This document shows positions 3,343-21,301 of a stretch of 55,489 bases of DNA, piece by piece (the first letter of the stretch is position 1; each line of letters begins with the position of its first letter). The stretch lies in assembly GCA_014238535.1 (NCBI GenBank), contig JABAAW010000006.1, positions 1-55,489 on the forward strand, read 5' to 3'. The position numbers and the translations under genes are program-made. Under the pieces are notes generated by a model. It made no database searches. It was not told the origin of the DNA and saw only the letters and a program-made list of their open reading frames with translations. This DNA comes from Alphaproteobacteria bacterium. Its GTDB lineage: Bacteria > Pseudomonadota > Alphaproteobacteria > JABAAW01.

Positions 3343-3604
3343 AGTATAGTCCCCACTTACAAAAAGGTTTCCACGAAAAAGCCCTTCCACTTCTGTGTCT
3401 GCCACTACTAGCATGGCTTTTGCGATAAAGCAAGTAATTAAAGTGGCGAGGTTAGCTTTATGTGCGTCTTTATGTGCGCCTAATTATTTGAGTTATTGCA
3501 TTGCCAAGCGCATTTTTTTTTGTTATTTTGTGTTTTTTTGCGTTCGAGAATTTAGACTAGGCTCACCTAGGATTATACGAGGGTTATTACGAGGGTTATA
3601 TAGC

Positions 3605-3919
3605 GTGTTTGCGGTTGTAGAAAGTGGTGGTAAGCAGTATCGTGTTTCGCGAGGTTCGCGTGTGACATTGGAGCGTTTGACGGCGGAAGTTGGCGAGAGC
3701 GTTACCTTTGATGATGTATTGTTGCTTGCTGATGGAGATAAGGCGACGGTGTATGAGGCTTCTGCGCTTGCGAATGTGAAGGTTTTAGGCAAGGTAGTTT
3801 CGCAGCATCGTGGTGAGAAGTTGTTGATTTTTAAGAAGCGTCGGCGAAAGAATTCGCGACGTAAGAATGGACATCGTCAGTATCTTACTGAGGTTGAGAT
3901 AACCTCGATTGAGAAGTGA
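3605..3919 (+). CDS. rplU: 50S ribosomal protein L21
   Basis: (V/M)FAVVESGGKQYRV...KKRRRKNSRRKNGHRQYLT. GTG start at 3605; the ORF-track extension to 3395 is spurious. Confidence 0.95.
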   Translation: MFAVVESGGKQYRVSRGSRVTLERLTAEVGESVTFDDVLLLADGDKATVYEASALANVKVLGKVVSQHRGEKLLIFKKRRRKNSRRKNGHRQYLTEVEITSIEK

Positions 3920-5420: not shown

Positions 5421-5502
5421 GGAGGGATGTCCGAGTGGTTAAAGGAGACGGGCTGTAAACCCGTTGGCTATGCCTACGCAGGTTCGAATCCTGCTCCCTC
5501 CA
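5421..5502 (+). tRNA. tRNA-Tyr (GTA), CCA not encoded
   Basis: Acceptor stem GGAGGGA/TCCCTCC, anticodon loop CTGTAAA, long variable arm, T arm GCAGG-TTCGAAT-CCTGC. Confidence 0.95.
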
Positions 5503-5595
5503 TGCTTTTACGCATTTTTTACGCAGAGTCTTTAAAGGCTACCAATCCTAGACCGTGCACTCTGCTACACCACGTCCACGCATGACTAGTCCCTA

Positions 5596-6275
5596 CGGGA
5601 TGAATCCCCCCGCACCCCCTTGCTGGCATGTTAATATGTTTCACTGTGCCTATGCTCGCGCGCCCGCAAGGAAGCGCAAGCGGGCATAGGCGCGAAACGC
5701 AAAGCTATCTAACCTGACGCAACCTCTTTAATAAACTATGAGAGAAAAGAAACTATATTATTTAAAGTATTACCTTTTTTGCGCATTGCGAGCAATAGCT
5801 CTTGGGGTAATAAGCGTGCGCTTTAGCACACGCTCCGCTGACGAAAGCTCTTCGCAGGGAGACTCGGTCTCCATGGGACTCATCCCCCCACACCACCCTT
5901 GCATGTTAATATATCTCACTGTGCCTATGCTCGCGCGCCCGCAAGGTAGCGCAAGCGGGTATAGGCGCGAAACGCAAAGCTATCTAACCTTCCTCAACCC
6001 TTTTAATAAACTATGAGAGAAAAGAAACTATATTATTTAAAGTAATGTTTTTTTTGCGCATTGCAAGCAATAGCTCTTGGGGTAATAAGCGTGCGCTTTA
6101 GCACACGCTCCGCTAACGAAAGCTCTTCGCAGGGAGACTCGGTCTCCATGGGACTCATCCCCCCACACCCCCCCTTTATGTTTGGATAGATAATACACTT
6201 GAGAACTTACAACTTAATCTACTTCGCCTATGCTCGCGCGCCCGCTAGGAAGCGCAAGCGGGTATAGGCGCGATT
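5596..6275. repeat. Tandem direct repeat, 275-bp period (2 full units plus a partial third), hairpin-rich
   Basis: gcatgttaat starts at 5626 and 5901. Long stem gcctatgctcgc...gcggg(c/t)ataggc at 5648-5691, 5923-5966 and 6226-6269. Units end in a GGGA..TCCCC hairpin plus a C-rich tail ending CCCTT. Confidence 0.9.
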
Positions 6276-6334
6276 AAATTACGCGCCCGATGTGTTACTT
6301 TTATACGCCCCTCAAGCAATATATCTACGCCAAC

Positions 6335-6838
6335 TCAGGCTAAAGCCCAAGGTTCAGCCCATAGGGAATAGCGTGTGCGTCCTCCGACTTTAGCGGCACG
6401 CAGTATTTGATGACGCGGCGTGGAGTTTTCACGCGCCAAGCCTATATGTATCCACCCGCCCCTTGGCTCGTCTTCGATAAAGAACTCACCTATTATCTGA
6501 TCGATGGGCAAGTCCCTGCTTAACACACGAGGAGCTATTTGCAAGAACGCCTCGTAGTTTCCGACGGGCAGATTATCTAGGTCTGCGGCGAGTCCTAGTT
6601 TATGCATCGAGCGCTTTGCACCACCCTGCCCGTCATTGACTTTTCCCTTACGCAGACCACTTGATACGAATATGGATTTTCCGCCCAAGATATCTCGTAC
6701 CTGTTCTAGAGTTTCGCACACGCGCACTAGGTTTTGGCGTTGTTTTGCGGTTGGTTGATTGTCGAGTCCCATGCGCGTTGCGTATGAGGATCTGATCATT
6801 TCTTGCAGACTAAAATGTTCGGTAAGGTATTGCGCCAC
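6335..6838 (-). CDS. Peptidase M15 family zinc peptidase, phage-type endolysin-like
   Basis: LTEHFSLQEM..S, LEQVR, VSSGLR..VN, S-x-H-x6-D (SMHKLGLAAD), DQII and WIHIG; no signal peptide; GTG start with GGGG RBS. Confidence 0.8.
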   Translation of the reverse strand: MAQYLTEHFSLQEMIRSSYATRMGLDNQPTAKQRQNLVRVCETLEQVRDILGGKSIFVSSGLRKGKVNDGQGGAKRSMHKLGLAADLDNLPVGNYEAFLQIAPRVLSRDLPIDQIIGEFFIEDEPRGGWIHIGLARENSTPRHQILRAAKVGGRTRYSLWAEPWALA

Positions 6839-6944
6839 GGTTCCCCTATTTGAGATAAACGTTCAAGAATTACTTACGCTGGCTTTTTGCCACAGCACGA
6901 CGATGCTAGAGCCAACGCGTTTGTTTTTGAGATTACTGAGTTGT

Positions 6945-7223
6945 TTATTTTTTACGCTTGCGCCCGCGAGGGTTTTTAGCTTTTTCGACAGCGAGCTCGC
7001 CCATTCGCTTCATGAAGTCTGATTTTAGAAAAGCGAGTAATAGCCCGACGGTAAAGACGATGTAGAACATAGTTTCGTCTACTGCTTTGGGGTTATTGAC
7101 GCGGAAGTATAGAACGATTGCGCACAGCCCGCCGCCGAATATCGTACTTCTTTCTTTACTTCTTGCCCCTGCGTAGTTAGCGGTTGCACCGACAGCTTTT
7201 CCGACTACTGAGAATATTCCCAT
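6945..7223 (-). CDS. Putative holin (2 TM, basic C-terminus)
   Basis: About 92 aa; RSKERST followed by two hydrophobic segments and a KRKK tail; strong AGGAGG RBS before ATG 7223; directly upstream of the M15 peptidase. Confidence 0.55.
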   Translation of the reverse strand: MGIFSVVGKAVGATANYAGARSKERSTIFGGGLCAIVLYFRVNNPKAVDETMFYIVFTVGLLLAFLKSDFMKRMGELAVEKAKNPRGRKRKK

Positions 7224-7271
7224 GTTTCCTCCTGATTTTTTAGATGATAACAAATTAGATGATACTAAATT

Positions 7272-7300
7272 AGACTAATACAACTGAACTTTTTAGTCAA
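7272..7300 (-). promoter_or_regulatory. Sigma70-type promoter for the holin-endolysin pair, overlapped by an inverted repeat
   Basis: Minus strand reads TTGACT-N17-TAGTCT; the hexamers overlap the inverted repeat GACTAA...TTAGTC. Confidence 0.5.
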
Positions 7301-7434
7301 TAGGAGTTTATTATGATTTATGAGCGATTAGATTATAAGGGGAAGCATTGCTGTATTTATATTGTTGTTGTGATTATGATTATGATATTTTTGTGCGCAT
7401 TTTTTATTGAGTTGCTATACTATTTTCTAGTTAT

Positions 7435-7505
7435 GCGGGTGTAGCTCAACGGTAGAGTCCCAGCCTTCCAAGCTGGTGGTGTGGGTTCGATTCCCATCAC
7501 CCGCT
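7435..7505 (+). tRNA. tRNA-Gly (TCC), CCA not encoded
   Basis: Acceptor stem GCGGGTG/CACCCGC, anticodon arm CCAGC-CTTCCAA-GCTGG, T loop TTCGATT. Confidence 0.95.
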
Positions 7506-7511
7506 TATTAT

Positions 7512-7583
7512 AGGAGTGTAGCTCAACGGTAGAGCACCGGTCTCCAAAACCGGGGGCTGTGGGTTCGAATCCCTCCACTCCTG
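7512..7583 (+). tRNA. tRNA-Trp (CCA), 3' CCA not encoded
   Basis: Acceptor stem AGGAGTG/CACTCCT, anticodon arm CCGGT-CTCCAAA-ACCGG, T loop TTCGAAT. Confidence 0.95.
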
Positions 7584-7626
7584 CATCTTTAGATTTTGCA
7601 TCTTTAGATTCTGCATTTTTAGATTC
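7582..7626. repeat. 15-bp tandem triplication starting at the tRNA-Trp 3' end
   Basis: tgcatctttagattt / tgcatctttagattc / tgcatttttagattc. Confidence 0.85.
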
Positions 7627-7655
7627 TGTGTATTTGATTTTTTGCGACAATAGTT

Positions 7656-8432
7656 ATGACGAAAGAGATTATCGGCAATTGGAAGATGAACGGCTTGTTG
7701 AGTTGCGAGGCGACTTTTTGCGAGATAATGTCTGGCTATGCGGAGTATGATTCGCTTTCTGCTTCTGCTGATAGTGATTGTGAAGGAGCGCGTTTGACTA
7801 TTTGCCCGCCGTCGACTTTGCTTTATAGGTTTTCGAGCCTTGCACGCGAGCGTGATTCGCGAGTTTTGCTAGGTGGTCAGTCTTGTCACCACGCTGCTGA
7901 AGGCAGTTTTACGGGGGATATTTCGGCTAGTATGCTGCACGATTGCGGAGCGCATAGAACGCTTTTAGGTCATGCTGAGAGGCGAGCTTCTGGCGAGAAC
8001 GATGGTATGATTTCGCGTCAGTTGCTAGCAGCCCTGCACTCGGGGCTTACGCCTATATTGTGCGTTGGCGAGGATATGGACGAGCGCAGTTCTGGTCGCA
8101 CGCGTATACGCCTTGAGGAACAGTTAGCGGGAGCGTTGCTTTTAGTGCGCGAGATGGGTATTAGTATGCCTTCGCTATTGATTGCCTACGAACCTTTGTG
8201 GGCTATAGGTAGCGGCGAGTTACCTAGCGTTGATGAGATTTCACAAGCTTTAGAGTGTATTATGGCTAGCGTTTATGATTTTTCAGAAGTTAGCGTTTTG
8301 TATGGCGGTTCTGTTACTAGTAAGAATGCGGCGGCGATTTTGGATTGTAGCGATGGTCTTCTGATTGGCAAGGCTAGTTTAGATTCGGACGAGCTGCTTT
8401 CGATAGTTGGCTTGTGTTATGATTCTGTTTAG
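7656..8432 (+). CDS. tpiA: Triosephosphate isomerase (divergent)
   Basis: IGNWKMNG, GSFTGDISA, LGHAERR, AYEPLWAIGSG and LYGGSV. Confidence 0.92.
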   Translation: MTKEIIGNWKMNGLLSCEATFCEIMSGYAEYDSLSASADSDCEGARLTICPPSTLLYRFSSLARERDSRVLLGGQSCHHAAEGSFTGDISASMLHDCGAHRTLLGHAERRASGENDGMISRQLLAALHSGLTPILCVGEDMDERSSGRTRIRLEEQLAGALLLVREMGISMPSLLIAYEPLWAIGSGELPSVDEISQALECIMASVYDFSEVSVLYGGSVTSKNAAAILDCSDGLLIGKASLDSDELLSIVGLCYDSV

Positions 8433-8440
8433 GTTTATCG

Positions 8441-9130
8441 ATGATTGAGAAGGCTTTACGCGTTGAATCTGCTTCGGTTAAGGATTTAGCGATGGAGTTG
8501 AGCGATAGTTTGCCTGAGGGTCCCTCGCTATCGTGTGCGCCGCGCAGCACTGAGTTTAGTTCATTAGAATCGTCTATCGGTCGTCAAGTTCGCTTGTTGC
8601 GTAAGGAGCGAGGATTGACGACGACCGAGTTATCGAAGCAAGTTAGCATTTCTGCGAGCATGCTTTCGCGCATTGAGAATGGCAATGGAGCGCCCTCGCT
8701 CGGCAGCTTACATTCTTTAGCTGCGGCATTGAATGTTCCGATTTCGCATTTTTTTTATAATTTTGAGCGCTCGTGGGATGTTTCGCATGTTAAGTCTGGC
8801 AAAGGAATGTTGGTTGAGCGTCGAGGCACGAAGGCGGGACACCTCTACCAGTTGCTTGGACACCAGATAGGTGATGATGTTGTAGTTGAGCCATTTTTGA
8901 TTACGATGACGACTGATTCGGAGCCGTTTCCGATATTCCAACACGCGGGCACGGAGTTTTTGTATATTTTGCGTGGTCAGTTAGTCTACAGACACGGTGA
9001 TAAGCGATTTTTGTTGAAGCGAGGCGATTCGCTTTTTTTCGATGCGAACGCGCCGCACGGGCCGCTAGAGCTGCGAGGTTTGCCACTACGCTTCCTTTCA
9101 GTTATTTCTTATCGTAAAGAATTGGAATGA
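8441..9130 (+). CDS. XRE-family HTH plus cupin transcriptional regulator
   Basis: IGRQVRLLRKERGLT..ELS..SMLSRIENG..PSL HTH; C-terminal cupin FQHAGTEFLYIL.G...GDSLFFDA..PHG. Confidence 0.85.
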   Translation: MIEKALRVESASVKDLAMELSDSLPEGPSLSCAPRSTEFSSLESSIGRQVRLLRKERGLTTTELSKQVSISASMLSRIENGNGAPSLGSLHSLAAALNVPISHFFYNFERSWDVSHVKSGKGMLVERRGTKAGHLYQLLGHQIGDDVVVEPFLITMTTDSEPFPIFQHAGTEFLYILRGQLVYRHGDKRFLLKRGDSLFFDANAPHGPLELRGLPLRFLSVISYRKELE

Positions 9131-9156
9131 GAACAACATACGACTAGATAGCGAAT

Positions 9157-10422
9157 ATGAAGAAAGGATTGAATAGCGAGCAAGGAATAGAAGTCGTCCC
9201 GAAGGGTCAGAGGTTACTGGTCATCACGACGCAGAATATTTTCAGCGAGAACGGCGCCCGCAGCCTTATGCGAGGCAAGGCACGCGCGCTTTCAGAACAG
9301 GGTGTTTCGGTTAAGTTTTTCTGCCTGCGCTTTGGTGGAGTTAGTAGTAAGCAGCGTGCTGCGGCTGGCGTTGAGGTTGCGGGAACAGGCACGAGCGAGG
9401 GCTGGCTTTTGCGCTTGGGAGTTCTTTCTGATATTCGTGCTACGCTACGCACCTACCGTCCTGATTGGGTATTGGTATCGGGAGCGTGGCTATACCTATG
9501 GGGTGACAAGCTTGGTAGGGCTATCTCGTTGAGCGGTGCCTGCATTGCGGTTGACCTACAGGGACCTGTTGATGAGATAGCGGAGTATCAACGAGTGCTT
9601 GGCTCGCGCTTTCTTGCGCGTTTATTGAGCCGCTGGCTAGGATGGGCTGAGCATCGTTTTTTATCGCGTTGGACGCACCTTGTTGAGACGATGTCTGGCA
9701 ACGCTGTTCGCTATTTGAGTAGACATCGCCCGCGCTACGATGGCTCTGTGTGTTTAGTAAAATGTGGCTTTAGCGAAGCCTTTACGGATGCGCGTTATGC
9801 TAGTGAACGAGTTGCTTGGCGCAAGAAGTTAGGCATAGGAGCAGATAAGCGAGCGGTTGTTTTTGCGGGCACTTTGAGCGGTTGGCAGAATAAGGAAGCG
9901 CTGTTTGCGTTTGCGAAGAAGCATAGTAGTAGCGCAGACAAGACGGAGGTGCACTTTTTTGTTCCGCGTGCGCACCACGCGGAGGTAGCGGCGTTGGGTT
10001 TGCATAACACACGCACGGGCTTTTTACCTAGCGCACAGCTACAATCTGCGTTATGCGCGTTTGACTACGGCTTGCTACCGCGCGAGGAGACGATGACGAA
10101 CTATTTTGCGTTTCCGCTCAAGGTAAGCGAGTATGCGAACGCGCGTTTAGGTATTTTGGTAACCTATCGAGAAATGGGTTGGATGGAGGGCTTGCTCGCG
10201 CGAACATGCATCGACATAGATGCCTTTCCGCTTAGCGAAAAGAAGCTAGCGAGCGCTCGCTTGCGCTACGAAGATTTACGCGAATTGGAGTTTTCGCACA
10301 TGGTAGTCGGATTAATAAAGTTATATGGGAAGATAAGAAGAGATTTAGTTTCGAGCAAGATGGAGGTACTGGCTCGAGGTACGCGTGGAGCGTTTCAGCA
10401 TGCTATCGATATTCGCCGATAA
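9157..10422 (+). CDS. GT-B fold glycosyltransferase (GT4-like)
   Basis: VVFAGTLSGWQN and FDYGLLPRE...N.FAFPLKVSEY; overlaps the start of pseB. Confidence 0.65.
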   Translation: MKKGLNSEQGIEVVPKGQRLLVITTQNIFSENGARSLMRGKARALSEQGVSVKFFCLRFGGVSSKQRAAAGVEVAGTGTSEGWLLRLGVLSDIRATLRTYRPDWVLVSGAWLYLWGDKLGRAISLSGACIAVDLQGPVDEIAEYQRVLGSRFLARLLSRWLGWAEHRFLSRWTHLVETMSGNAVRYLSRHRPRYDGSVCLVKCGFSEAFTDARYASERVAWRKKLGIGADKRAVVFAGTLSGWQNKEALFAFAKKHSSSADKTEVHFFVPRAHHAEVAALGLHNTRTGFLPSAQLQSALCAFDYGLLPREETMTNYFAFPLKVSEYANARLGILVTYREMGWMEGLLARTCIDIDAFPLSEKKLASARLRYEDLRELEFSHMVVGLIKLYGKIRRDLVSSKMEVLARGTRGAFQHAIDIRR

Positions 10423-11434
10423 GCAGATATTGATAACTGGCGGTAGCGGCTCTTTTGGGCATGCGTTTTTGCGCTATGTTCTAGCTGGAGGTCAGGCTAA
10501 GCGCGTGGTTATTTTTTCGCGCGATGAGTATAAGCAATTTTTGATGCAGCGTGAGTTTAGCGATAATCGTCTGCGATTTTTTCTAGGAGATGTGCGTGAT
10601 CATGATCGATTGAAGCGTGCGTTTAGGAATATAGACATAGTTATCCATGCGGCGGCTTTGAAGCAGGTTACGGCTGCGGAATATAACCCTGGCGAGTGTA
10701 TTTTGACGAATGTTACTGGTGCGGACAATGTTATCAAGGCAGCGCTTGATTGCGGAGTTGATCGAGTTCTTGCGCTTTCGACGGACAAGGCGGTTAATCC
10801 TATTAACCTTTATGGAGCTGCGAAGTTATGCGCGGACAAGCTTTTTGTTGCGGCGAATAACTTGAGCGGAGCACGAGGCACGCGATTTTCGATAGTTCGT
10901 TATGGCAATGTAGTAGGTTCTCGCGGTAGCGTGGTGCCGTATTTTATCGAGCAGTCTCGTAGCGGTAGCATACCGATTACGGACGAGCGCATGACTCGCT
11001 TTTGGATTTCGCTAGACGATAGCGTAAGTTTTGTTGCGCGTTGCCTATGTGATATGCGCGGAGGCGAGATATATGTCCCGAAGATTCCGTCGATGCGCAT
11101 AGTAGACTTGGCGCGCGCGATAGCACCTGAAGCGAAGTTGCGAATAATTGGCGTTAGGGCTGGGGAGAAGATACACGAGGTGCTGGTGCCGAATGAGGAG
11201 GCACGCGATACGCTTTCCTTTAGCGATTACTATATTATAGGTCCGCGCGTGTTGGAATCGACTAGCGATGGGCGACAGGATTCGTTGTCGCTTGTGACAC
11301 GAGGTAGTGCTAGCGGAGAGTCTGGAGTTCAACCTAGTAAGGTAGATGAGGACTTTGAATATTCGAGTGCGAACAACGAGGAATGGCTTAGCGAGTCTAG
11401 ACTGCGCGAGATAATAGATACGAGCGGGGGTTAG
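10400..11434 (+). CDS. pseB: UDP-N-acetylglucosamine 4,6-dehydratase (inverting)
   Basis: ITGGSGSFG, FSRDEYKQ, HAAALKQV..AEYNP.ECI.TN, LSTDKAVNPINLYGA.K, VRYGNVVGSRGSVVP and TDERMTRFWI. ATG 10400 preferred over 10385. Confidence 0.93.
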   Translation: MLSIFADKQILITGGSGSFGHAFLRYVLAGGQAKRVVIFSRDEYKQFLMQREFSDNRLRFFLGDVRDHDRLKRAFRNIDIVIHAAALKQVTAAEYNPGECILTNVTGADNVIKAALDCGVDRVLALSTDKAVNPINLYGAAKLCADKLFVAANNLSGARGTRFSIVRYGNVVGSRGSVVPYFIEQSRSGSIPITDERMTRFWISLDDSVSFVARCLCDMRGGEIYVPKIPSMRIVDLARAIAPEAKLRIIGVRAGEKIHEVLVPNEEARDTLSFSDYYIIGPRVLESTSDGRQDSLSLVTRGSASGESGVQPSKVDEDFEYSSANNEEWLSESRLREIIDTSGG

Positions 11435-11462
11435 GCAAGCTATAACATTATGCTAAAAAATT

Positions 11463-12785
11463 ATGGAAGACATCCCTGAAGTTATTCCGTATGCGCGCCA
11501 TAGTTTGCACGATGATGATATGCGAGCGGTTATGGAGGTGTTGAGAGAGGATTCTGCGAGCCAACGCTTGACGCAAGGGTTTAGAACCTCGCGACTAGAA
11601 GTTCTTATTAGGGAGTATACGACAGCCGAGCACGCGGTCGCCTGTTCGAGCGGTACGGCGGGTTTGCACGCGAGTCTATTTGCGTTAGGAGTTAGCACGA
11701 ATGATATAGTTATCACTTCTGGCATCAGTTTTTGTTCGACGGCGAATGTTGTGCGTCATTGCGGAGGCGTGCCGCTATTTGCGGACATAGACGAGGATGC
11801 GCTTGGTCTGTGTCCGCGCTCGGTACGCGAGGCTTTAGAATGGGCGAAGGAGAATGGCAAGCGTGTTAAGGCTGTGATAGTGGTTTCTATGGGCGGGGTT
11901 GCGCATGCGAGTGCGGAGTTGCGTGATTTATGCAAGGCGTATGGTTGTAGAATAGTCGAGGATGCGGCGCACACGCTTGGTGGTCGTTATGCAGACGGAA
12001 GAGCGGTTGGTTGTGGCGAGTATGCGGACATCACGGTTTTTTCGCTGCATGCGATTAAACCTATAACGAGTGGCGAGGGGGGGGTTGCTACTACCAACGA
12101 TGAAGAGCTTGCGCGAAGGATGCGTTTGTTTTGCAACCATGGTATCGAGCGCGATGTTAGGAGGTTTAAGGACGATGTTGCCCTGAGTGCTCGTGAAATG
12201 GCAGCGCAGAAGATGACGTACGGCTATCAGCACTATCAGATGCAGGTATTAGGTTTGAACTACCGCATGTCTGAGTTGCACGCGGCGTTGGGATGCTCGC
12301 AGATGCGGCGTATAGATAGCAAGCGAGATAGAAGGAAGGAGCTAGCTGAGCGCTACGATAGGTTGCTTGATGATATACTTATCGATGATGTTAATCCTCT
12401 ATCTAGCATTATAAAGCCGTTGCAGCGGAACTATCGAGAACGTTCGGCGCACCATCTGTATGTGACAACGATAGATTGGCATAGGCTTGCTATAAATCGT
12501 AAGAGATTCATGCAAACGCTTGCGAATACGGGTAAGGATGGCTACGGGATTTGTACGCAAGTCCACTACATTCCGATTTACGAACACCCATATTATCGTG
12601 AAGCGGCAAAGTTTACCGAACGAGCTTTATTTGAAGCCGTTAAGCTTCCTCGTAGTGCTGAATATGCTAAGCGTGCGCTTTCGCTACCGTTATTTACGGA
12701 CATGCCACTATCGGCGGTTGAGCGAGTAGTCGATGCGCTTAAGGAGCTCGTGGATAATTGCCTCAAGAGAGATTTTAAACTTTAA
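11463..12785 (+). CDS. pseC: UDP-4-amino-4,6-dideoxy-N-acetyl-beta-L-altrosamine transaminase (DegT family)
   Basis: IPYARHSL, LTQG, SSGTAGLH, VEDAAH, FSLHAIKPITSGEGG (PLP lysine), LGLNYRMSE and QVHYIP; follows pseB. Confidence 0.88.
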   Translation: MEDIPEVIPYARHSLHDDDMRAVMEVLREDSASQRLTQGFRTSRLEVLIREYTTAEHAVACSSGTAGLHASLFALGVSTNDIVITSGISFCSTANVVRHCGGVPLFADIDEDALGLCPRSVREALEWAKENGKRVKAVIVVSMGGVAHASAELRDLCKAYGCRIVEDAAHTLGGRYADGRAVGCGEYADITVFSLHAIKPITSGEGGVATTNDEELARRMRLFCNHGIERDVRRFKDDVALSAREMAAQKMTYGYQHYQMQVLGLNYRMSELHAALGCSQMRRIDSKRDRRKELAERYDRLLDDILIDDVNPLSSIIKPLQRNYRERSAHHLYVTTIDWHRLAINRKRFMQTLANTGKDGYGICTQVHYIPIYEHPYYREAAKFTERALFEAVKLPRSAEYAKRALSLPLFTDMPLSAVERVVDALKELVDNCLKRDFKL

Positions 12786-12810
12786 GTCAGGCTAGGTACT
12801 TTAGTCAATT

Positions 12811-13000
12811 TGCGTCTATGGCTATCTTAAAAGGGGCATGGGGCATATTGCCACGCACGAATGGGAAAGCTCGGTCTGCGTCTATGATTATTTAAAGGGG
12901 GGCGTGGGGGGATGAATCCCCCCGCAAAAAAAGAAAAATCTTTAGGCAATAAACGAACTATTAGCATGTGTTGCGCGTAGCGTATCTTTTTTTGCATAAG
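12811..13000 (-). repeat. Inverted copy of the hairpin plus module B repeat (left flank of the AT-rich gene)
   Basis: 12891-13000 is a diverged reverse complement of 14092-14194 and 13811-13928. 12811-12857 is a further degenerate duplicate (tgcgtctatg..ttaaa(a)gggg occurs twice). Confidence 0.8.
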
Positions 13001-13062
13001 CGCAAGGTAAATTACTATTAAATGAAAATACAACTATTTTATTTTTATGCTAAAATAGCAAT

Positions 13063-13671
13063 ATGAGTGAAGTAACCTTCGATAGTATTTTTGCAGAGAT
13101 TGAAGAACATGCAAAAGATATTCGCATAAAAGAATTAAAGGAAAATGAAGACAGAAAAATAGCATGGCGGGATAGTGACTTACGCTGGATAAAGGACATT
13201 AGCTCGCCAAAGCAGCTGAGTAAAATCCTTCGGTCATTCCTACTGAAGATGATAGTAAAGGGGAATTTCCAATCCATAGAGGAAAAAACACAATCCAGGA
13301 AACATATTATATTAATCAACGATATAAATTTTCAGATAAAAACGTCTACAATTTGGCAAGGAGAGAAAAAAAGGCACTATAAATTTCAACAAATAAGAAA
13401 AAACAATTACGAAATACTTATTTGCTTTGGCTTGTCACCTTATGAAGCGCATTGTTGGGTTATCAAAAAAGACTGCATTATCGACGATGACAAAGAATGG
13501 ATAGATGATAGAACCATAGGACAACACGGTAAAAATTCGCGATGGCTTATAATAGACCCAGACGCAGTCGCAGATTGGCTACAGCCGCTCGGTGGTGATT
13601 TGCATGAAGCCTTGGCGGTACTGAAAGAAGCTATTCTTACTAGCGATAGTAAGCACGGAATGTTCACATAG
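13063..13671 (+). CDS. AT-rich hypothetical protein, PD-(D/E)XK restriction-endonuclease-like with degenerate catalytic motif
   Basis: Visibly AT-rich. IN..NFQIKTSTIW...YKFQQIR..NY..LICFGLSP..AHCWVI..GQHG resembles a family of putative type II REase-like proteins (recalled, not searched). QIK replaces E-x-K. Confidence 0.5.
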   Translation: MSEVTFDSIFAEIEEHAKDIRIKELKENEDRKIAWRDSDLRWIKDISSPKQLSKILRSFLLKMIVKGNFQSIEEKTQSRKHIILINDINFQIKTSTIWQGEKKRHYKFQQIRKNNYEILICFGLSPYEAHCWVIKKDCIIDDDKEWIDDRTIGQHGKNSRWLIIDPDAVADWLQPLGGDLHEALAVLKEAILTSDSKHGMFT

Positions 13672-13689
13672 CTTACGCATGGAGTTAGC

Positions 13690-14528
13690 GAGGACTCCTC
13701 CCTTGTGCGGAGACTCGTCTCTCGTGCTTTTTCAACGCAAACGAGCCACCAAGCGTCCAAGCCTAAAACTCTTCTTTGTTTTTGCGGGGGGATTCTCCCC
13801 CCACTCCCCCCTATGTGAAAAAGATGCGCTTCGCGCAGTGCCTGCTAAAGATTATTTACCATCGAAAGATGCTTTCTTCTTTTTTGCGAGGGACGAGTCC
13901 CGTGAGACGAGTCTCCGCGCTCCCTTTATGTAGACTAACCAAAGTCTAACAGACTCTCCTTGCTACCTTGTGCTTGTGGCGAGAGGCGTCCGCCAGGCAA
14001 CGCAAACGAGCCACCAAGCACCCAAGCAACCAAGCAACCAAGACTAAAATTCTTCTTTGTTTTTGCGGGGGGATTCTCCCCCCACTCCCCCCTATGTGAA
14101 AAAGATGCGCTTCGCGCAACGCATGCTAAAGATTATCTAACATCGAAAGATTTTTCTTTTTTGCGAGGGACTCGTCCCTCGCACTCCCTTTAAATTAGTT
14201 AATCGTAACTAATAGAGTCTCTGTTTTTTTACGAAGGTTTAGTCCCTCACTCTCCCTTTATGTAGACTACCAAAGTCTAACAGACTCTCCTTACTACCTT
14301 GCTATTACCTCGCGTGCTTGTGGCGAGTGCGTCCGCCAGGCAACGCAAACGAGCAAACAAGCACCAAGCACCAAGCACCAAGCACCAAGCACCAAGCACC
14401 CAAGCCTAATTTTTTTGTTTTTCTTTTTTTTTGCGAGGACGAGTCTCCGCGCTCCCTTTAAATTAGTTAATCGTAACCAATAGAGTCTCTGTTTTTTACG
14501 AAAGATTAGTCTCTCGCGCTCCCTTTAA
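13690..14528. repeat. Modular repeat array: a recurring hairpin/C-rich junction separating re-used modules
   Basis: Module B (ctatgtgaaaaagatgcgcttcgcgca...) at 13811 and 14092. Module C-A (tatgtagacta..aaagtctaac...caacgcaaacgagc) at about 13927 and 14259. Module D (taaattagttaatcgtaac...) at about 14191 and 14459. Confidence 0.9.
14358..14399. repeat. Heptanucleotide microsatellite (CAAGCAC)6
   Basis: Six perfect copies; the equivalent positions at about 13750 and 14014 hold fewer, imperfect copies. Confidence 0.95.
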
Positions 14529-14639
14529 GTTCTTTCACTGCAATTACAAGCGCATTATGTAACAATAGAATTCTACCATGTGCATGACAATTTGCTAGCA
14601 ATATAAACCTAGAACAGCAAGACACAAACATAGGCAACT

Positions 14640-15722
14640 ATGAGCAAACAAGCTAAACTACATATCGATTTTTTTGCAGACCTACAAATAGCAAGCAAAT
14701 CTAACCCAACCGCAATAGGATTAGGTCACGCACGGCGCATTCTAATCCTAGCAGAAAGCCTACAGCAAAACAATAGCCAGACAACCGAACTACGCTGCTT
14801 TTTTGACGAACCAAACCATGCAAGGCGGTTATTTCCACACACACAACTGCCATTTTTACATTGGTACGACACGAGTAGTAAGCACACCCCCCGCGATTTA
14901 CTGGTAGTAGATTCCTACCGCCTCACCGAGTTGCCCGCCCCTATTCGCAATAGCTATCGTCACATCGCTTGTTTTCACGATGACAAGAGCGCACCGTCCT
15001 ATGCGACAATTGCGATTTGCCCGAATGTCTCTGCACCGCCACCTTCGACCGATACACGCGGAGTGCATCACCTTACAGGAGCGATGTATTTTCCTTTTGA
15101 CCTTAGCCTAACCGATGAAGCATTATCACCGCGTGCGCAGGCGAGGGATGCGTTTCGCGTTATGCTCTGGCTTGGAGGAGATGAGGATGGCAGTAATGTT
15201 GCCCCTTTATTGAACGTTTTACTATCGTCGCCAGTCTTGTCGAATTTTGTGTTTGAGGTTATCCTCTCGCCGCTACTTACCTGTGATCGTGATATTTCGA
15301 GCGATTTGCGCTTGCACTTATCGTCTCCGCAAGTGCGCCTGCATCGAGATATTACTGCGATGTCGCGCTTATTTTCGTTTTGTGGCACCTATGTTGGAGG
15401 CGCAGGAGTTTCGAGTTGCGAGGCTGCGTTGCTTGGCTTGCGCTTGGTTCTTTGTGCGCTTGCAGACAACCAACGAGGCAATGCTAATTCTCTTGCACGA
15501 GCGGGTGCGATTTTATTTGACATTTCGCACCCACAGAGCCTATTGCTTGCATTTTTCTCGCTCCTTGAGGAGAGTCAAGATAGGCAACCTCTTAACTCTA
15601 CAGCACTTGCCTCTACGGCACTTGCCTCTACGGAGCGTGCCTCTAAGGCGGTTAGAGAATTGGGTTTTGACCGTCATGGTGCGTCTCGCCTCGCGAGCGC
15701 GCTTTTGCGTATTATCACCTGA
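14640..15722 (+). CDS. pseG: UDP-2,4-diacetamido-2,4,6-trideoxy-beta-L-altropyranose hydrolase-like (PseG/SpsG)
   Basis: IGLGHARR...LA, LLVVDSY, GGAGVSSCEAALLG, LADNQ..NA and D.HGASR; lies within the pse cluster. Confidence 0.75.
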   Translation: MSKQAKLHIDFFADLQIASKSNPTAIGLGHARRILILAESLQQNNSQTTELRCFFDEPNHARRLFPHTQLPFLHWYDTSSKHTPRDLLVVDSYRLTELPAPIRNSYRHIACFHDDKSAPSYATIAICPNVSAPPPSTDTRGVHHLTGAMYFPFDLSLTDEALSPRAQARDAFRVMLWLGGDEDGSNVAPLLNVLLSSPVLSNFVFEVILSPLLTCDRDISSDLRLHLSSPQVRLHRDITAMSRLFSFCGTYVGGAGVSSCEAALLGLRLVLCALADNQRGNANSLARAGAILFDISHPQSLLLAFFSLLEESQDRQPLNSTALASTALASTERASKAVRELGFDRHGASRLASALLRIIT

Positions 15723-16810
15723 TGTCAGATTTTTTTAGCGAGCGTTTATGTTCGAGCAGCGGTCGTCCTATCGTTGTTGCGGAGGTTTCGACGAACCACC
15801 GAGGCTCGTTATCTGAGGCGTGCGCGTTGATCTGCGCTGCTGCGCGAGCTGGAGCGGACGCGGTTAAGTTTCAGAGTTATGCTGCGCTCGACCTCACGCT
15901 TCGTTCTTCTCGTAAGGAGTTTATGCTTGAGCACCCTTTGTGGCGAGGTCGCAGTTTATTTTCGCTTTACAGCGAGGGCAGCCTTCCGTTGAGTTGGCAC
16001 GAGCGTTTATGGAGCGAGGCTTCTCGTTGCGGTATAGCGATATTTGCGTCGGTTTTTTCGCCTGAGCGCCTTGCGTTACTTGAATCGTTAATAGTATCGC
16101 CAGCCTACAAGATTGCTTCAGCCGAGTTAGTTGACTTGGAGTTGATCGGTTCGGTTGCGCGCACGGGTCGGGCGGTTATTATATCGACTGGCATGGGTAG
16201 TCACGAAGAGATAGAGCGAGCTGTTTCGGCGGTGCGAGCGGCGGGTAACGATCGCCTTGTGCTACTGCATTGCTTGAGTGCCTATCCGGCGCATAGCGAT
16301 GCGATGAACCTGCGTGCGCTTACGACTTTGGCGCGCGAGTTTGGCTGTGCGGTAGGCTTATCGGACCACACGCGAGATGCGGATGCGGCGCGACTTGCGG
16401 TTGCGCTTGGGGCGAGCGTGATTGAGAAGCACTTCACGCTTGAGCGGCGCGAGGGCGACTTGGACGCGGCTTTTTCGCTTACCGAGACTGAGTTTTCTGC
16501 TTTCAGTAGGGCGATCAGGGATGCGTGGTGCGCTATGGGTGATGGCGAGTTGGAGGTTGGAGATAGCGAGCGCGCCTCGCTACCTTTCAGACGGAGTTTA
16601 TATGTTGTCAAGGCTATGCGCGAGGGCGATGCTTTCACGGGCGAGAACATCCGCTCTATCCGCCCGAGCGCGGGTCTTGCGCCTTATCACTATCGGCGAG
16701 TTTTACGCGCCTGTGCGGCTTGTGACATTTCAGCGGGCGTGCCGCTAGAGGAGTCGATGCTGGACGAGTCACGAGCGCGAGTAAGTAGCCAGCAGGATTC
16801 AAGCCGATAA
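15722..16810 (+). CDS. pseI: Pseudaminic acid synthase (NeuB family, C-terminal SAF domain)
   Basis: VAEVSTNH.GSL, AVKFQSY, AYKIASAE, IISTGM, LLHC.SAYP, GLSDHT, IEKHFTL, D.AFSL, FRRSLY and SIRP..GL. Confidence 0.9.
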   Translation: MSDFFSERLCSSSGRPIVVAEVSTNHRGSLSEACALICAAARAGADAVKFQSYAALDLTLRSSRKEFMLEHPLWRGRSLFSLYSEGSLPLSWHERLWSEASRCGIAIFASVFSPERLALLESLIVSPAYKIASAELVDLELIGSVARTGRAVIISTGMGSHEEIERAVSAVRAAGNDRLVLLHCLSAYPAHSDAMNLRALTTLAREFGCAVGLSDHTRDADAARLAVALGASVIEKHFTLERREGDLDAAFSLTETEFSAFSRAIRDAWCAMGDGELEVGDSERASLPFRRSLYVVKAMREGDAFTGENIRSIRPSAGLAPYHYRRVLRACAACDISAGVPLEESMLDESRARVSSQQDSSR

Positions 16811-17628
16811 TGCCTAGTGAGGATTTTGCGTGCGCTGTGCGTATGAGTTCTGAGTTCCGCGAGCTTGGAGCGAGTATGGATTTTAGCGCTACTGAGTTTC
16901 GTTGTTTGGCGGTAATCCTTGCGCGAGGAGGTAGCGAGCGCATCAGGGATAAGAACATAGTTGATTTTTTTGGCAAGCCGTTATTGGGTTATTCGCTTGA
17001 GCTTGCGGATGCGGCGGATATTTTCACGCGTGTGCATGTATCGACTGATTGCGAGCGTATCGCGAGCGTTGCGCGAGCCTTTGGTCATGCGACGGACTTT
17101 GCGCGTCCTAGTGGTCTTAGCGATGCTCGAACTGGTGTCTGGTCGGTCGTGCGTTCGGTATTGGCTGAGTATAGCAGGCGTGGAGAGGAGTTTGACTATG
17201 TGTGCTTGCTATCGGCTTGTGCGCCGTTGTTGCGTCGGGAGGACTTACGCGGTGGAATGGCATATTTCTTATCGTATTTTAGGCGAGGTGAATGTATCCA
17301 GCTCATGGCTTGTTGCGAGTATCTAGCCTCGCCTTTGCGTGCGCTTGGCTTCAGCGAGACTGGAATGCTCGAGCCGTTGGACGCGTCGTCTTTTGCTGAG
17401 TCTCGCTCGCAGGATTTACGCGCTTATGTTATGGATACGGGCGCCTTTGCCTATCGTGCGAGTAGTGACTTGTTGAGCGGTGAGTATGTTGCTACGAATG
17501 GCGAGGTTGCGATGTCGCGCTTGGCGCGTGCTTACATTTTACCGCGTGCGCGGGCTGTAGACATCAACGAGCCCAGCGATTTAGAGTTCGCTAAGCTATT
17601 GTATCGGGCGCAAGAAATACGGGAGTAA
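16810..17628 (+). CDS. pseF: Pseudaminic acid cytidylyltransferase (NeuA family); start may be later
   Basis: LAVILARGGSERIRDKNI..F.GKPL, VSTD, RSQDL...DTGAF and AVDINEPSD. Confidence 0.85.
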   Translation: MPSEDFACAVRMSSEFRELGASMDFSATEFRCLAVILARGGSERIRDKNIVDFFGKPLLGYSLELADAADIFTRVHVSTDCERIASVARAFGHATDFARPSGLSDARTGVWSVVRSVLAEYSRRGEEFDYVCLLSACAPLLRREDLRGGMAYFLSYFRRGECIQLMACCEYLASPLRALGFSETGMLEPLDASSFAESRSQDLRAYVMDTGAFAYRASSDLLSGEYVATNGEVAMSRLARAYILPRARAVDINEPSDLEFAKLLYRAQEIRE

Positions 17629-17648: not shown

Positions 17649-18722
17649 TTACAAGCCCCCTTCTTGCCTCTTGCTCGAGCTGATCACCGCAGCGAGTGCC
17701 TTTTCGACAAGGTTGTCGCTAGCCCTACCCTCTTTAACGAAACCACTCGGCTGATGGTCGGTCGCAACATCGAGGATTTTTTGCAGTAGCACTTGCCTAT
17801 CTTGCTCCGTTGTAGCCGCCTTGCTTAAGTTTTCGTATGACTCTAGCGTGATCGCACGCTGGTCGCAGACGATAGCATTATGATTATTGACAGCGTAGAA
17901 ACGCAAGCCACTAAAGAATGTAGCGAGCAGGGTTATCGATAGTAGCGTGTTGACAGAAAATATGGTTTCCAATGCTAGATGAAAATACAGATAATCCCTA
18001 ATAGGTATATGTGGCACCATCGTAGTACTTCCTCGCTGACAATAAGCTAAAAAAGCTAATGAAATCACGATAGCCAACGAGCATGCTAAAAAAGCATAAG
18101 AAGTTTTTTTATAACCTTTTGATTTGTTTCTAAAAGTAACTGCCTGTTCATTTAAATTTCCTACCGTTTTCTTTTTACTCTTTATCCGCTCTTCGATTTC
18201 AGTAAAAAAACTTACTGCATCATCTATTCTGTATATTAACCTTCCAAGAAAATTAATTTTCACCTCCTCAGGCATATTATCTACCGCTACAGATATATTT
18301 ATCTGCAGCTGCTCTAAAAATCCATGTATTTTAATGTTTATTAAAAATAATTCCGCCTGATTGATTTCTTTATAAATAATTGAATCTGTGTTACCTACTG
18401 TTTCTCTAATGAATTCAATAAACTTACGCAAATCATTTTCTGCTTTTACGAATAATTTTTTATTATTTGGATTACTGGTAATAACAGTAATAACATTTGG
18501 CTTAATAACGCATATAAATTTTATTCTATATTCTAATTTTCTTAAATTATTAAAGAATTTAATAGCAGTATCAAATCCATCAAGTGCATTTGTATAATCG
18601 TGCTGTTGTTTTGCTACTGTTTTAGAAGCGTAATCAGCAATTATTTTATCGGCAGCCTGTATGCCACTAGCTGGTTGCACCACCTCTTCAGATTCTTTAG
18701 AAGTTTTTTCGTCTTCAGCCAT
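17649..18722 (-). CDS. Hypothetical 2-TM membrane protein, tandem paralogue 1
   Basis: 357 aa; shares MAEDEKTSK, YRIKFIC, TVGNL, two TM segments and RFYA..HNA.VCDQRA.TL.SY...LQKILD.ATDHQPSGF.KE with its two neighbours. Confidence 0.85.
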   Translation of the reverse strand: MAEDEKTSKESEEVVQPASGIQAADKIIADYASKTVAKQQHDYTNALDGFDTAIKFFNNLRKLEYRIKFICVIKPNVITVITSNPNNKKLFVKAENDLRKFIEFIRETVGNTDSIIYKEINQAELFLINIKIHGFLEQLQINISVAVDNMPEEVKINFLGRLIYRIDDAVSFFTEIEERIKSKKKTVGNLNEQAVTFRNKSKGYKKTSYAFLACSLAIVISLAFLAYCQRGSTTMVPHIPIRDYLYFHLALETIFSVNTLLSITLLATFFSGLRFYAVNNHNAIVCDQRAITLESYENLSKAATTEQDRQVLLQKILDVATDHQPSGFVKEGRASDNLVEKALAAVISSSKRQEGGL

Positions 18723-18758
18723 CGTTCCCTCTCCTCCTAGCCGTTTACGCTCACGGGC

Positions 18759-18787
18759 TTACTAGCATGTAATACAAACTCATACAA
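18759..18787 (-). promoter_or_regulatory. Putative sigma70 promoter of paralogue 1
   Basis: TTGTAT-N17-TAGTAA with TGC just before the -10; same architecture upstream of all three paralogues; GGAGGAG RBS downstream. Confidence 0.45.
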
Positions 18788-18874
18788 ATTCATGCAACCA
18801 AATACCATTATGGTTCACCTAGACTATGTAAGTTATAGACTAGGATTCATCAACCCAAAAACAAGGAATAGCGA

Positions 18875-19939
18875 CTAACGAGGTTTACCTCTAAGCAATA
18901 TGACTAGCTCTGCCAATGACTTACCTATAAGGCTATCGCCATCCTTATCTTCTTTAGAGAAACCGCTCGGCTGATGGTCGGTCGCCGCATCGAGGATTTT
19001 TTGCAATACCAACAGCCTTTCTTCGCCCGCCGTAGCCGAGTTGCGTAAGGCTTTATAAGATTTTAGCGTATTGGCGCGTTGGTCGCAGACGACGGCGTTA
19101 TGCTTGTTCGCCGCATAGAAGCGGATAGAGGCAAATAGTATGACCAGCAGACTTACGGACAGCAACACCCTAAGAGAAAATATAGTCTTCAGCGCGATGT
19201 AGAAGTAGATATATTCCTTCGCCTCCTTCGCTTCGCTAAGCGGAACTTCAGAGAAGTAATTTGTTAATACAAAGATTGCGCAAACAAATAGGAGAAAAAT
19301 TCCACCCGCTCCTACTAAAAACCAGACTGCATTCTTTTTATATTTTTTTGAAGCAGCTGTAAAATTTTTTGCCTGCGCATCTAAATTACCTACCGTTTCT
19401 ACTTCTTTTAGCCTTTCTTTAATTGCTCCAATTATCTGCGCTATAGATGTATTCGTTAGATTAATATGCTCCTCTAATTTTTCAGCATCAGTTTCTTTAG
19501 CTTCATTTTTTTTAAATTTTATATTTTTTTGCAATAGTTGCAAGAAAGTATCTATTAGACTTTGTGTCCTTGCTAATTCATCTTTATTTGCTTTACTATA
19601 AAAAATTGCCTTTTCATGTAATTCTACTTCGAAAAATGCAATTAATCTTATCAAAAAATTCTTTGTGGTTGCATATATTTCTACTCTCCCACTAGCCGCA
19701 GTTAGGATATTATGATTGAAGGCGCATATAAATTTTATTTGGTAGTTTATTTTTTTACGGTCGTCAAAATTTTTAATCTTATCATTGACATTATCGAGCG
19801 TTGCAGCAAATTTATTTTGTTGCTGAATTGCCCTATTGTTATAACCAAAGTCATCAATTATTTCATCGACAGCCAGCATGCCACGAGTTGTTTTTGCCTC
19901 TGGCTCAGCGTCTTTAGAAGTTTCTTTCTCTTCAGCCAT
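18875..19939 (-). CDS. Hypothetical 2-TM membrane protein, tandem paralogue 2
   Basis: 354 aa; same conserved N- and C-terminal motifs, divergent AT-rich middle. Confidence 0.85.
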   Translation of the reverse strand: MAEEKETSKDAEPEAKTTRGMLAVDEIIDDFGYNNRAIQQQNKFAATLDNVNDKIKNFDDRKKINYQIKFICAFNHNILTAASGRVEIYATTKNFLIRLIAFFEVELHEKAIFYSKANKDELARTQSLIDTFLQLLQKNIKFKKNEAKETDAEKLEEHINLTNTSIAQIIGAIKERLKEVETVGNLDAQAKNFTAASKKYKKNAVWFLVGAGGIFLLFVCAIFVLTNYFSEVPLSEAKEAKEYIYFYIALKTIFSLRVLLSVSLLVILFASIRFYAANKHNAVVCDQRANTLKSYKALRNSATAGEERLLVLQKILDAATDHQPSGFSKEDKDGDSLIGKSLAELVILLRGKPR

Positions 19940-19977
19940 CGTCTGCTCTCCTCGTAGTCACGCCCTGCATCTAGGAT

Positions 19978-20006
19978 TTGATAGCAGATAACGCAGTCTT
20001 ATACAA
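19978..20006 (-). promoter_or_regulatory. Putative sigma70 promoter of paralogue 2
   Basis: TTGTAT-N17-TATCAA; the upstream region 19937-20023 is nearly identical to 21093-21183. Confidence 0.45.
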
Positions 20007-20042
20007 GTTTATGCAACCAAATACCATTAATGCACCAAGCCG

Positions 20043-21095: not shown

Positions 21096-21137
21096 CGTCT
21101 GCTCTCCTCATAGCCATTCACGCCCTGCGTCTAGGAT

Positions 21138-21166
21138 TTGATAGCAGATAACGCAGTCTTATACAA
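21138..21166 (-). promoter_or_regulatory. Putative sigma70 promoter of paralogue 3
   Basis: TTGTAT-N17-TATCAA, identical to 19978-20006. Confidence 0.45.
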
Positions 21167-21301
21167 GTTTATGCAACCAAATAGCATCAACCATAGTCTG
21201 CACTTGACCGCTTTAGTAAAGCGTTTTACAATCGCTTGCCAAATCTAGTAAACACGCTAACGAGTAGCCAAGAACGAGTAAAACAAGGCGACTATAGGTT
21301 A

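Follow-up and report, generated by a model that had tools for sequence, protein, structure and literature searches.

A genus-restricted family of hairpin repeats in Alphaproteobacteria, arranged as inverted dimers that in part enclose low-GC genes

The 55,489-nucleotide stretch analysed here (the window) is contig C66 of the alphaproteobacterial assembly G000 (1.39 Mb in 91 contigs, 47% guanine plus cytosine (GC), 81.6% completeness) and contains short GC-rich hairpin units of a repeat family that is restricted to one genus. In the window, a restriction-enzyme-like gene is inserted into a pseudaminic-acid (pse) operon within an element built of these units, and in the related genome G003 low-GC cargo lies between inverted units that have the same polarity and stand a gene's length apart. 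The hairpin motif is probably one module of a genus-specific, non-coding palindromic element that resembles miniature inverted-repeat transposable elements (MITEs) and the hairpin-forming doublets (REPINs) of repetitive extragenic palindromic (REP) sequences, and of which a minority is loaded with foreign genes. The original prediction for this DNA, made from its letters alone, was of one hairpin family that brackets foreign-looking cargo at two loci and is perhaps recognised by an enzyme encoded elsewhere.

The covariance model R1, built from alignment A2 (17 copies from G000 and one relative) and run over the whole window with filters off, identified eight units with E <= 0.004, R1 E-values being rough, and the next-best match in the 55 kb had E = 0.73. 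One unit lies on the minus strand (12892-12937, 57.6 bits) and seven on the plus strand (starting at 13772, 13874, 14053, 14151, 14219, 14421 and 14486 and spanning 13772-14529), which matches the predicted inverted copy at 12891-12926 and the approximately seven copies at 13783-14528, as well as the statement that the motif is missing from core regions of the window. The unit consists of an 8-bp stem that begins with GCG and a loop of 3-7 nt, with a T-run as 5' flank and (G/A)C(T/C)CCC as 3' flank. A strict pattern of T-run, GCG, stem and C-rich tail had five matches in the window and none in each of 100 shuffles. A looser pattern (T-run, any hairpin, C-run) found about as many matches after reversal of the sequence as in the genome itself (106 against 130; 32 against 37) and was dropped for BLAST and the covariance model. 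Among the 17 copies of A2, 92.6% of the cells of the helix are paired (50-77% in slid controls), three of its eight pairs show changes on both sides, and its covariation score was reached by none of 500 column shuffles. The covariance model and these compensatory stem changes bear out the proposal of a single family. That stems vary with pairing kept is likewise true across the family, but three of the window units (14219, 14421 and 14486) have decayed stems (-1.3 to -4.5 kcal/mol, z -1.0 to +0.1). Four well-folded hairpins are present at 12892, 13772, its twin 14053, and 14151 (z -1.7 to -5.0), and the unit at 13874 is a fused double hairpin. In Rfam, only three tRNAs reach family thresholds, and none of the weaker matches (E <= 1), which are far below the gathering score, fits the repeats.

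Seven genomes of the genus were compared (G000, the source of the window, to G006), in which R1 identified 17, 15, 10, at least 150, 69, 28 and 0 units, respectively. The R1 count for G003 was capped, and mapping of the whole of its single contig (1,902,689 bp, 55% GC) raised it to at least 264 units. No R1 match (E <= 0.001) was found in 60 other genomes of the class, and viral contigs contain no match to the core pattern; the family is thus restricted to the genus, being present in six of its seven genomes. Beyond the window, G000 contains approximately ten family sites identified by BLAST and R1 (C21 1-300 and 11650-12200, C54 1-560, C11 75100-75520, and further sites on C13, C27, C34 and C41). 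As four G000 contig ends stop in repeats, its copy number is a lower bound. All examined G000 loci are intergenic and their neighbours are mostly housekeeping genes, including EamA and a class Ib tRNA synthetase beside dnaA, CysRS, a citramalate/isopropylmalate synthase-like gene, IspG, a divergent pair of alcohol dehydrogenase and Na/Ca exchanger, ribosomal protein L25 and a glycosyltransferase. Two neighbours look accessory, namely an HNH gene (GC 0.357) and an MT-A70 fragment.

The orientation of neighbouring units in G003 is far from random. Pairs closer than 450 bp comprise 49 in (-,+), none in (+,-), four in (+,+) and seven in (-,-) orientation; at 450-4000 bp the corresponding numbers are 32, 20, 9 and 11, and above 4000 bp they are 10, 70, 23 and 28. 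The unit is therefore a building block of both arms of a long palindrome; these arms turn their T-run sides inward and their C-rich tails outward and together form a dimer of approximately 450 nt. One G003 dimer (491 nt) folds into one long hairpin at -176.8 kcal/mol, compared to -97.4 +/- 5.3 kcal/mol for shuffles (z = -15). Each arm is a chain of hairpins; the dimer cores are near-identical in G003, and the outer ends of the elements differ between sub-families. The bias recurs in G004, where 150 of 1336 candidates were scored and pairs within 4 kb are (-,+) in 15 cases and (+,-) in five. In G000, (-,+) pairs of R1 units are located on C41 (7208-/7293+), on C27 (2900-/3217+) and in the window (12892-/13772+), with a further, regex-defined pair on C11, and no (+,-) pair occurs within 4 kb.

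GC-rich hairpins beside T-runs could also serve at gene 3' ends as intrinsic terminators or as RNA-stability hairpins, without any role in gene movement, and the arms do contain terminator-like sites (four compared to 1.2 expected in the G003 dimer, and four compared to 2.2 expected in the window region). However, the T-run lies 5' of the hairpin on one strand, which corresponds to an A-run 3' of the hairpin on the other, and the G000 units occur in both orientations in convergent, divergent and tandem gene contexts, among them a divergent promoter region (C27) and a position upstream of cimA (C54). The units are therefore not plain terminators, a point on which the original prediction had staked its reading. 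Furthermore, the terminator-like sites of the window are directed inward and those of the G003 dimer outward, and a terminator function would leave both the 49-to-0 polarity of the dimers and their low-GC cargo unexplained, which makes it highly improbable. The same opposition of facing led us to reject the arms as outward-facing insulators as a general rule.

What lies between the inverted units depends on their polarity. In G003, in which genes were called by crude longest-ORF (open reading frame) heuristics as in G000, the median GC content is 0.467 in the 32 gene-sized (-,+) gaps compared to 0.531 in the 20 (+,-) gaps (Mann-Whitney p = 3.7e-5), and the largest ORF has a GC content below 0.45 in 18 of the former and in none of the latter. 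According to Pfam, ten of the 32 (-,+) cargo sets contain DNA-modification or nuclease genes (two methylase and endonuclease pairs, one methylase-T5orf172 fusion, one MT-A70 methylase, two GIY-YIG, one T5orf172, two GmrSD and one HNH). Sel1-repeat proteins account for four further sets, RTX-repeat proteins for two, CCDC90-like coiled-coil paralogues for five, transporters or redoxin for three and ORFs without family for seven, and the last is a tiny ORF outside the Pfam scan. No transposase or recombinase family was identified in any of the 32 sets. Of the 20 (+,-) gaps, the two that were scanned hold citrate synthase and CbiD. Compared to a reference empty dimer, 23 of the 32 loaded elements retain an intact left arm as far as the dimer centre (reference positions 273-316), and the right arm begins at 279-340 in 11 of the 17 cases in which the filter detected a right arm, which places the cargo at the palindrome centre. 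Cargo genes are encoded on both strands, and loaded elements are dispersed around the chromosome. The CCDC90-like paralogues, a recurrent cargo at G003 dimer centres, are small coiled-coil proteins with a hydrophobic C-terminus.

The window contains one such loaded element (Table 1). In G003 and G004, pseC directly abuts pseG, and the 1.85 kb that separate these genes in G000 are therefore an insertion. NCBIfam relates the ORF downstream (14640-15722) to PseG with E 8.5e-17, short of the curated cut-off. Inverted arms surround the cargo, with 12896-12947 pairing with 13761-13812 (I1, 52 nt, 73%), 12961-12991 with 14099-14129 (I5, 31 nt, 90%) and a further pairing of 81% (I6). The enclosed ORF has a GC content of 0.374, below the 5th percentile of G000 (0.398); it has no match in Pfam, NCBIfam or PDB and one database relative only, with 54% identity. 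Arrays related to the right arm are present on G000 contigs C21 and C54, and the heptamer/octamer microsatellite motif within it also occurs in those arrays. Terminator-like hairpins of both arms face the cargo (12972-12984 +, 13837-13825 - and 14118-14106 -), and, judged from these and the promoter-like site, the insertion may split the pse operon into two transcription units. Sequencing contigs from the four DNA runs that contain the window, all from one study and labelled marine metagenome, include the insert and bridge pseC into the cargo; contig joints inside the arrays may stem from other repeat copies. A PseC-based search for related loci gave one remote locus (31% identity) of no use for synteny. 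Directly after pseF, a low-GC block (17649-21200; 0.34-0.37 per kb) contains two ORFs without family on the minus strand (17649-18722 and 18875-19939) and an internal repeat (19716-20027 and 20872-21187, 82.8% identical); it has weak similarity to the same position in G003 and no flanking R1 units.

Table 1. Features of the repeat loci and neighbouring genes; positions refer to the window except in the last row.
Feature	Position	Strand	Evidence or remark
tRNA-Tyr	5421-5502	+	ARAGORN, Rfam; left neighbour of first repeat cluster
Partial unit: 3' arm and C-rich tail, without T-run or full stem	5586-5625	+	Repeat D4; weak fold, z = -1.06; no R1 match
Tandem 275-bp composite monomer, two copies	5602-6151	+	TRF: period 275, 2.0 copies, 94% matches
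Family B, second GC-rich longer hairpin motif, three copies	5643-5695, 5918-5970, 6221-6273	+	Repeat D6, 92-96%
pseB	10385-11434		Pseudaminic-acid operon
pseC	11463-12785		Pseudaminic-acid operon; DegT family
Whole insertion, 1.85 kb	12786-14639	.	pseC ends 12785, pseG starts 14640; absent from G003 and G004 (synteny, junctions)
Left arm: one unit (12892-12937) and inner module	12892-12991	-	Inner module is inverted copy of 13818-13848 and 14099-14129
Cargo ORF, 202 aa, type II restriction-endonuclease-like	13063-13671	+	PADLOC PDLC03515 REase_II, E 2.3e-19
Right arm: tandem array of ~280-340-bp composite, seven units	13737-14546	+	D2 (145 nt, 88%, spacing 281), D3, D11
Shorter microsatellite (AGCAACCA)4.2	14009-14042		TRF; inside array
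(CAAGCAC)n microsatellite, 6.7 copies	14358-14405	+	TRF
Promoter-like site, outer array edge, upstream of pseG	14543-14571	+	Consensus match only
neuB	15722-16810		Pseudaminic-acid operon
Cytidylyltransferase gene	16810-17628		Pseudaminic-acid operon
CCDC90-like genes of G003	L027:1430-1942, L029:17683-18273, L034:14127-14504, L101:11726-12145, L102:14170-14571, L112:9552-9995		G003 loci

The predicted bracketing of foreign-looking cargo at two loci thus applies to the pseC/pseG locus, where the low-GC ORF lies between inverted units, but not to the locus after tRNA-Tyr. This first cluster (5586-6330) has no inverted partner and no cargo. It consists of two copies of the 275-bp monomer (5602-5876 and 5877-6151; repeat D1, 91%), followed by another partial copy, and each monomer ends in a partial unit (5850-5902 and 6125-6180). 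Compared by eye, the monomer appears to correspond to the (+) arm of the long G003 element. The copies originally noted at 5596, 5854 and 6129 keep the 3' arm and the tail (D4, 65-77% identity; I7, 27 nt, 89% complementary to 12894-12920), but none is a full copy or has an R1 match even at E <= 10. The 'lysis genes' described as the cargo of this cluster, an M15 peptidase (6335-6838, GC 0.51) and the ORF at 6945-7253, have the same gene order and 50-72% amino-acid identity in G003 and G004 and are therefore core genes. By tblastn synteny, the order L21-L27-Obg-(tRNA-Tyr)-M15-ORF102-TIM-HTH/cupin-GT4-pseB-pseC-pseG-neuB-pseF is kept in both relatives.

Family B (Table 1) accompanies the 275-bp monomer and recurs on G000 C41 (510-675) beside the MT-A70 methylase fragment at the contig start. 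Among the neighbouring genes, ribosomal protein L21 (ORF 3395-3919, first-start call at GTG) has approximately 70 residues before its Pfam domain (residues 72-172 of 174), which may be a real extension or reflect an over-long ORF call. A 15-nt tandem repeat (7581-7628, 3.2 copies, 90% matches) lies directly 3' of tRNA-Trp and upstream of tpiA, and length variants at this repeat are found among the sequencing contigs (joints 7584-7655 and 7611-7643).

Comparison of G003 and G004 provides signs of cargo movement. In G003, CbiD and an oxoprolinase gene flank the methylase-T5orf172 cassette, a copy of which occupies another locus in G004 with 95.7% identity; syntenic core blocks of the two genomes are 87-94% identical. 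At the G003 site of this cassette, G004 has only a partial element. At another syntenic site, repeat arms on either side enclose a GIY-YIG gene in G003 and a different minus-strand ORF in G004. Synteny breaks between the two genomes coincide with repeats; breakpoints and an inversion between G003 L044 and G004 L047/L048 are likewise located at repeat elements.

In our reading, which we consider more likely than not, the element comprises two inverted arms of approximately 100-250 bp with T-runs inward and C-rich tails outward, most elements are empty and lie intergenically between ordinary genes, and a minority carry one or two foreign genes at the centre. The pseC/pseG insertion is then such an element, in which the right arm has been amplified to a tandem array, and the first cluster is a tandem run of one-armed monomers without cargo. 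The hairpin family and its restriction to the genus, the architecture of inverted dimers, the insertion compared to G003 and G004 and the low-GC cargo at the palindrome centres are observed directly. Cargo might first enter at the fragile centre of the palindrome and then move among elements and genomes by homologous recombination via the shared arms, without a dedicated transposase, a route to which we would give somewhat less than an even chance. A further-reaching proposal, which we regard as rather doubtful, is a transposase-free cassette system with approximately 80 dispersed inverted-arm 'docks' per genome that have arms of 100-250 bp in common. Any gene arriving at the centre of a palindrome would thereby become portable, and host recombination via these arms could carry it between docks and between species of the genus. 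Homing by nuclease cargo and composite transposition are live rivals of recombination between arms.

As part of a REP/REPIN family, the units would be mobilised by a REP-associated tyrosine transposase (RAYT) or another HUH (Y1) enzyme encoded elsewhere, as the original prediction had suggested. They are short, GC-rich, extragenic hairpins of high copy number that occur mostly as inverted dimers, as the text of PMC3733652 describes for REPs, and GTAG is present near the tail of some G000 copies. The original statement that a GTAG tag is lacking was inexact, since two copies of the window (13922 and 14254) and further G000 copies carry (A/T)GTAGAC 3' of the tail; however, it lies approximately 7-10 nt from the stem and never adjoins it, there is no GTAG in the G003 copies, and no CGTC tag in the family units. 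Moreover, Y1_Tnp (PF01797) has no match in any of the seven genus genomes, including the single-contig G003, although the control was positive in six of 14 reference genomes. The RAYT reading is thus unsupported and very unlikely. An IS91-type enzyme (PF04986) had no match, and its control likewise matched nowhere.

A smaller but appreciable chance remains that the elements are classical MITEs whose DDE-type transposase, acting in trans, was unassembled, lost or unrecognised, with the loaded forms as composite transposons of two MITEs. The long inverted arms, the non-coding nature, the length below approximately 600 bp, the high copy number and the near-identical G003 cores would fit this explanation, as would cargo between inverted copies, for which MITE-flanked integrons and MITE-297 provide parallels in the part of the literature compared (PMC6382973). 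Yet no gene of the families rve (PF00665; one sub-threshold match in G002), DDE_Tnp_1 (PF01609), DDE_3 (PF13358) or IS110-type (PF01548) was found in G000-G004, which include two near-closed genomes; the 32 cargo sets contain no transposase, and no target-site duplications were resolved. As originally noted, the window contains no transposase either. A classical transposase is either unrecognised or absent.

The element centre could alternatively be a homing site, at which free-standing nucleases cut a multi-copy palindrome and copy themselves in, other cargo being secondary. Five of the 32 G003 sets contain GIY-YIG, T5orf172 or HNH genes (four stand-alone nucleases and the methylase-T5orf172 fusion), the two G003 GIY-YIG genes are paralogues (53.5% identity), the HNH gene of G000 adjoins a C11 dimer, and the cargo of the window resembles a nuclease. 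Against homing stands the fact that 22 of the 32 sets lack a restriction-modification or nuclease domain (Sel1, RTX, coiled-coil, transporters and unknown ORFs), and its chance appears slim. The GIY-YIG gene in particular was rejected as driver, since no genome contains more than two copies, none was found in G000, and the family also occurs in G006, a genome free of R1 units.

Hairpins that bracket cassettes can also be likened to the attC sites of integrons and to Xer-dependent dif modules, and a host site-specific recombinase acting on the hairpins might exchange the cassettes. The inverted hairpin sites around cargo and the different cargo at one syntenic site would agree with this, and the only recombinases detected are two tyrosine recombinases (PF00589) each in G003 and G004, which we take to be XerC and XerD. 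Neither is among the cargo, no further integrase was found, resolvases (PF00239) have no match in G000, G003 or G004, cargo occurs in both orientations, and homology is interrupted in the middle of the palindrome, 100-150 bp away from the hairpin units, so that we regard such exchange as a very remote prospect.

Several observations weigh against our reading of the elements and their cargo. We could resolve neither target-site duplications nor, for any empty element, a clean filled/empty junction, and the mobility of the elements themselves is therefore unproven. G003 and G004 are related and hence non-independent replicates, and in G004 the methylase cassette is accompanied on one side by no more than a partial element. 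The (-,+) cargo of G003 also includes ordinary-looking genes, such as BCCT and SSF transporters, redoxin and ORFs with a GC content of approximately 0.51-0.56. Fragmentation of the G000 assembly, with four contig ends lying in repeats, leaves a single gene-sized (-,+) pair visible there; genes flanking G000 repeats have a median GC content of 0.474 compared to 0.479 for the rest (p = 0.86), and only two of 17 are strongly low in GC. No contig in the four sequencing runs joins pseC to pseG, and no empty allele was seen. Finally, absence from Pfam searches leaves room for an unrecognised transposase, and G000 is not complete. The association with foreign genes is thus real in G003 and weak in G000. 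Enrichment beside low-GC genes, which had been proposed as a check, is accordingly found in the gene-sized (-,+) gaps of G003 but not in G000, and the idea that the repeats mark sites of gene acquisition is borne out by the pseC/pseG insertion and the loaded G003 dimers, but not by the G000 flanks overall; it is stronger in the relative than in the window.

These findings touch two open questions, namely how REP- or MITE-like repeats spread without a transposase and how defence genes move in small genomes poor in insertion sequences (IS). Should the arms serve as portable homology or offer a fragile landing site, they would provide a simple route for the exchange of accessory genes without a transposase, and if the dock system exists, a streamlined marine bacterium would keep restriction-modification, nuclease and surface-repeat genes in a store that is integron-like but distributed over the genome. 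For the window alone the result is narrower: one restriction-enzyme-like gene lies within an element in the pse operon, and the supposed lysis cargo is core DNA.

In the literature compared, which did not extend to the REP consensus figures of PMC3733652, we found general precedents but no description of this family. With REPs and REPINs of the RAYT-associated GTAG super-family it shares short GC-rich extragenic palindromes in many copies (20-40 bp in REPs; an 8-bp stem with a loop of 3-7 nt here, with 264 units in G003 and 17 in G000), inverted dimers with a spacer that fold into larger structures (49 (-,+) compared to no (+,-) pair in G003) and vertical maintenance, as far as described in PMC3733652 and PMC3337134. 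It differs in having no GTAG adjoining the stem, no Y1_Tnp gene in the seven genomes, arms of approximately 100-250 bp with several hairpins, same-orientation tandem arrays in G000 and cargo genes at dimer centres. In tagged REPs, GTAG or CGTC directly adjoins one end of the stem (Di Nocera et al., 2013; PMC3733652). According to the text of the same paper, CGTC REPs are common in alpha-proteobacteria, have no known transposase, and combine 8-9 bp stems with A/T in the first two positions, loops of 4-5 nt and a CCA tail; they mainly form head-to-head dimers and are clustered in some genomes. These REPs, which include dRS3/NIME of Neisseria and RPE-4/6 of Rickettsia, are likewise apparently without a dedicated transposase (PMC3733652), but by that text the family described here differs in lacking CGTC, A/T first stem pairs and the CCA tail, its stem beginning with GCG and its flanks being a T-run and GCTCCC. 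As both tags are absent from the stem, the family is not placed among tagged REPs; in its organisation, however, it works like them, with inverted dimers that are extragenic and kept within a lineage.

The closest genus-specific analogue is the Correia element (CREE) of Neisseria, a non-coding inverted repeat that is abundant between genes, affects neighbouring transcription and has been seen to be mobilised between genomes, according to the abstract of PMC2649163. There is no sequence relation to CREE, neither a TA duplication nor a site for integration host factor (IHF) is shown here, and forms with cargo are absent from that abstract (PMC2649163). Intrinsic terminators, in which a hairpin is followed by a T-run in sense at a gene 3' end, have a different layout, and so do integrons, in which an integrase stands beside a same-orientation cassette array, since the loaded elements are scattered and their cargo lies on both strands. 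With MITEs the family shares terminal inverted repeats in a small, non-coding element (the approximately 450-nt dimer; window arms I1 and I5), but searches of G000-G004 with the four DDE and IS110-type families revealed no parental IS or transposase that has these ends. Pairs of MITEs, as two inverted non-autonomous copies, are described as bracketing passenger genes (PMC6382973), and restriction-modification genes with flanking inverted repeats have been described with genome insertions and allelic substitution (PMC2853133, 2010). As presented in the parts of these papers compared, such cases number only a few in each genome and are associated with known IS or transposases, whereas here, with no transposase detected, at least 32 loaded and 49 empty elements share a genome of 1.9 Mb.

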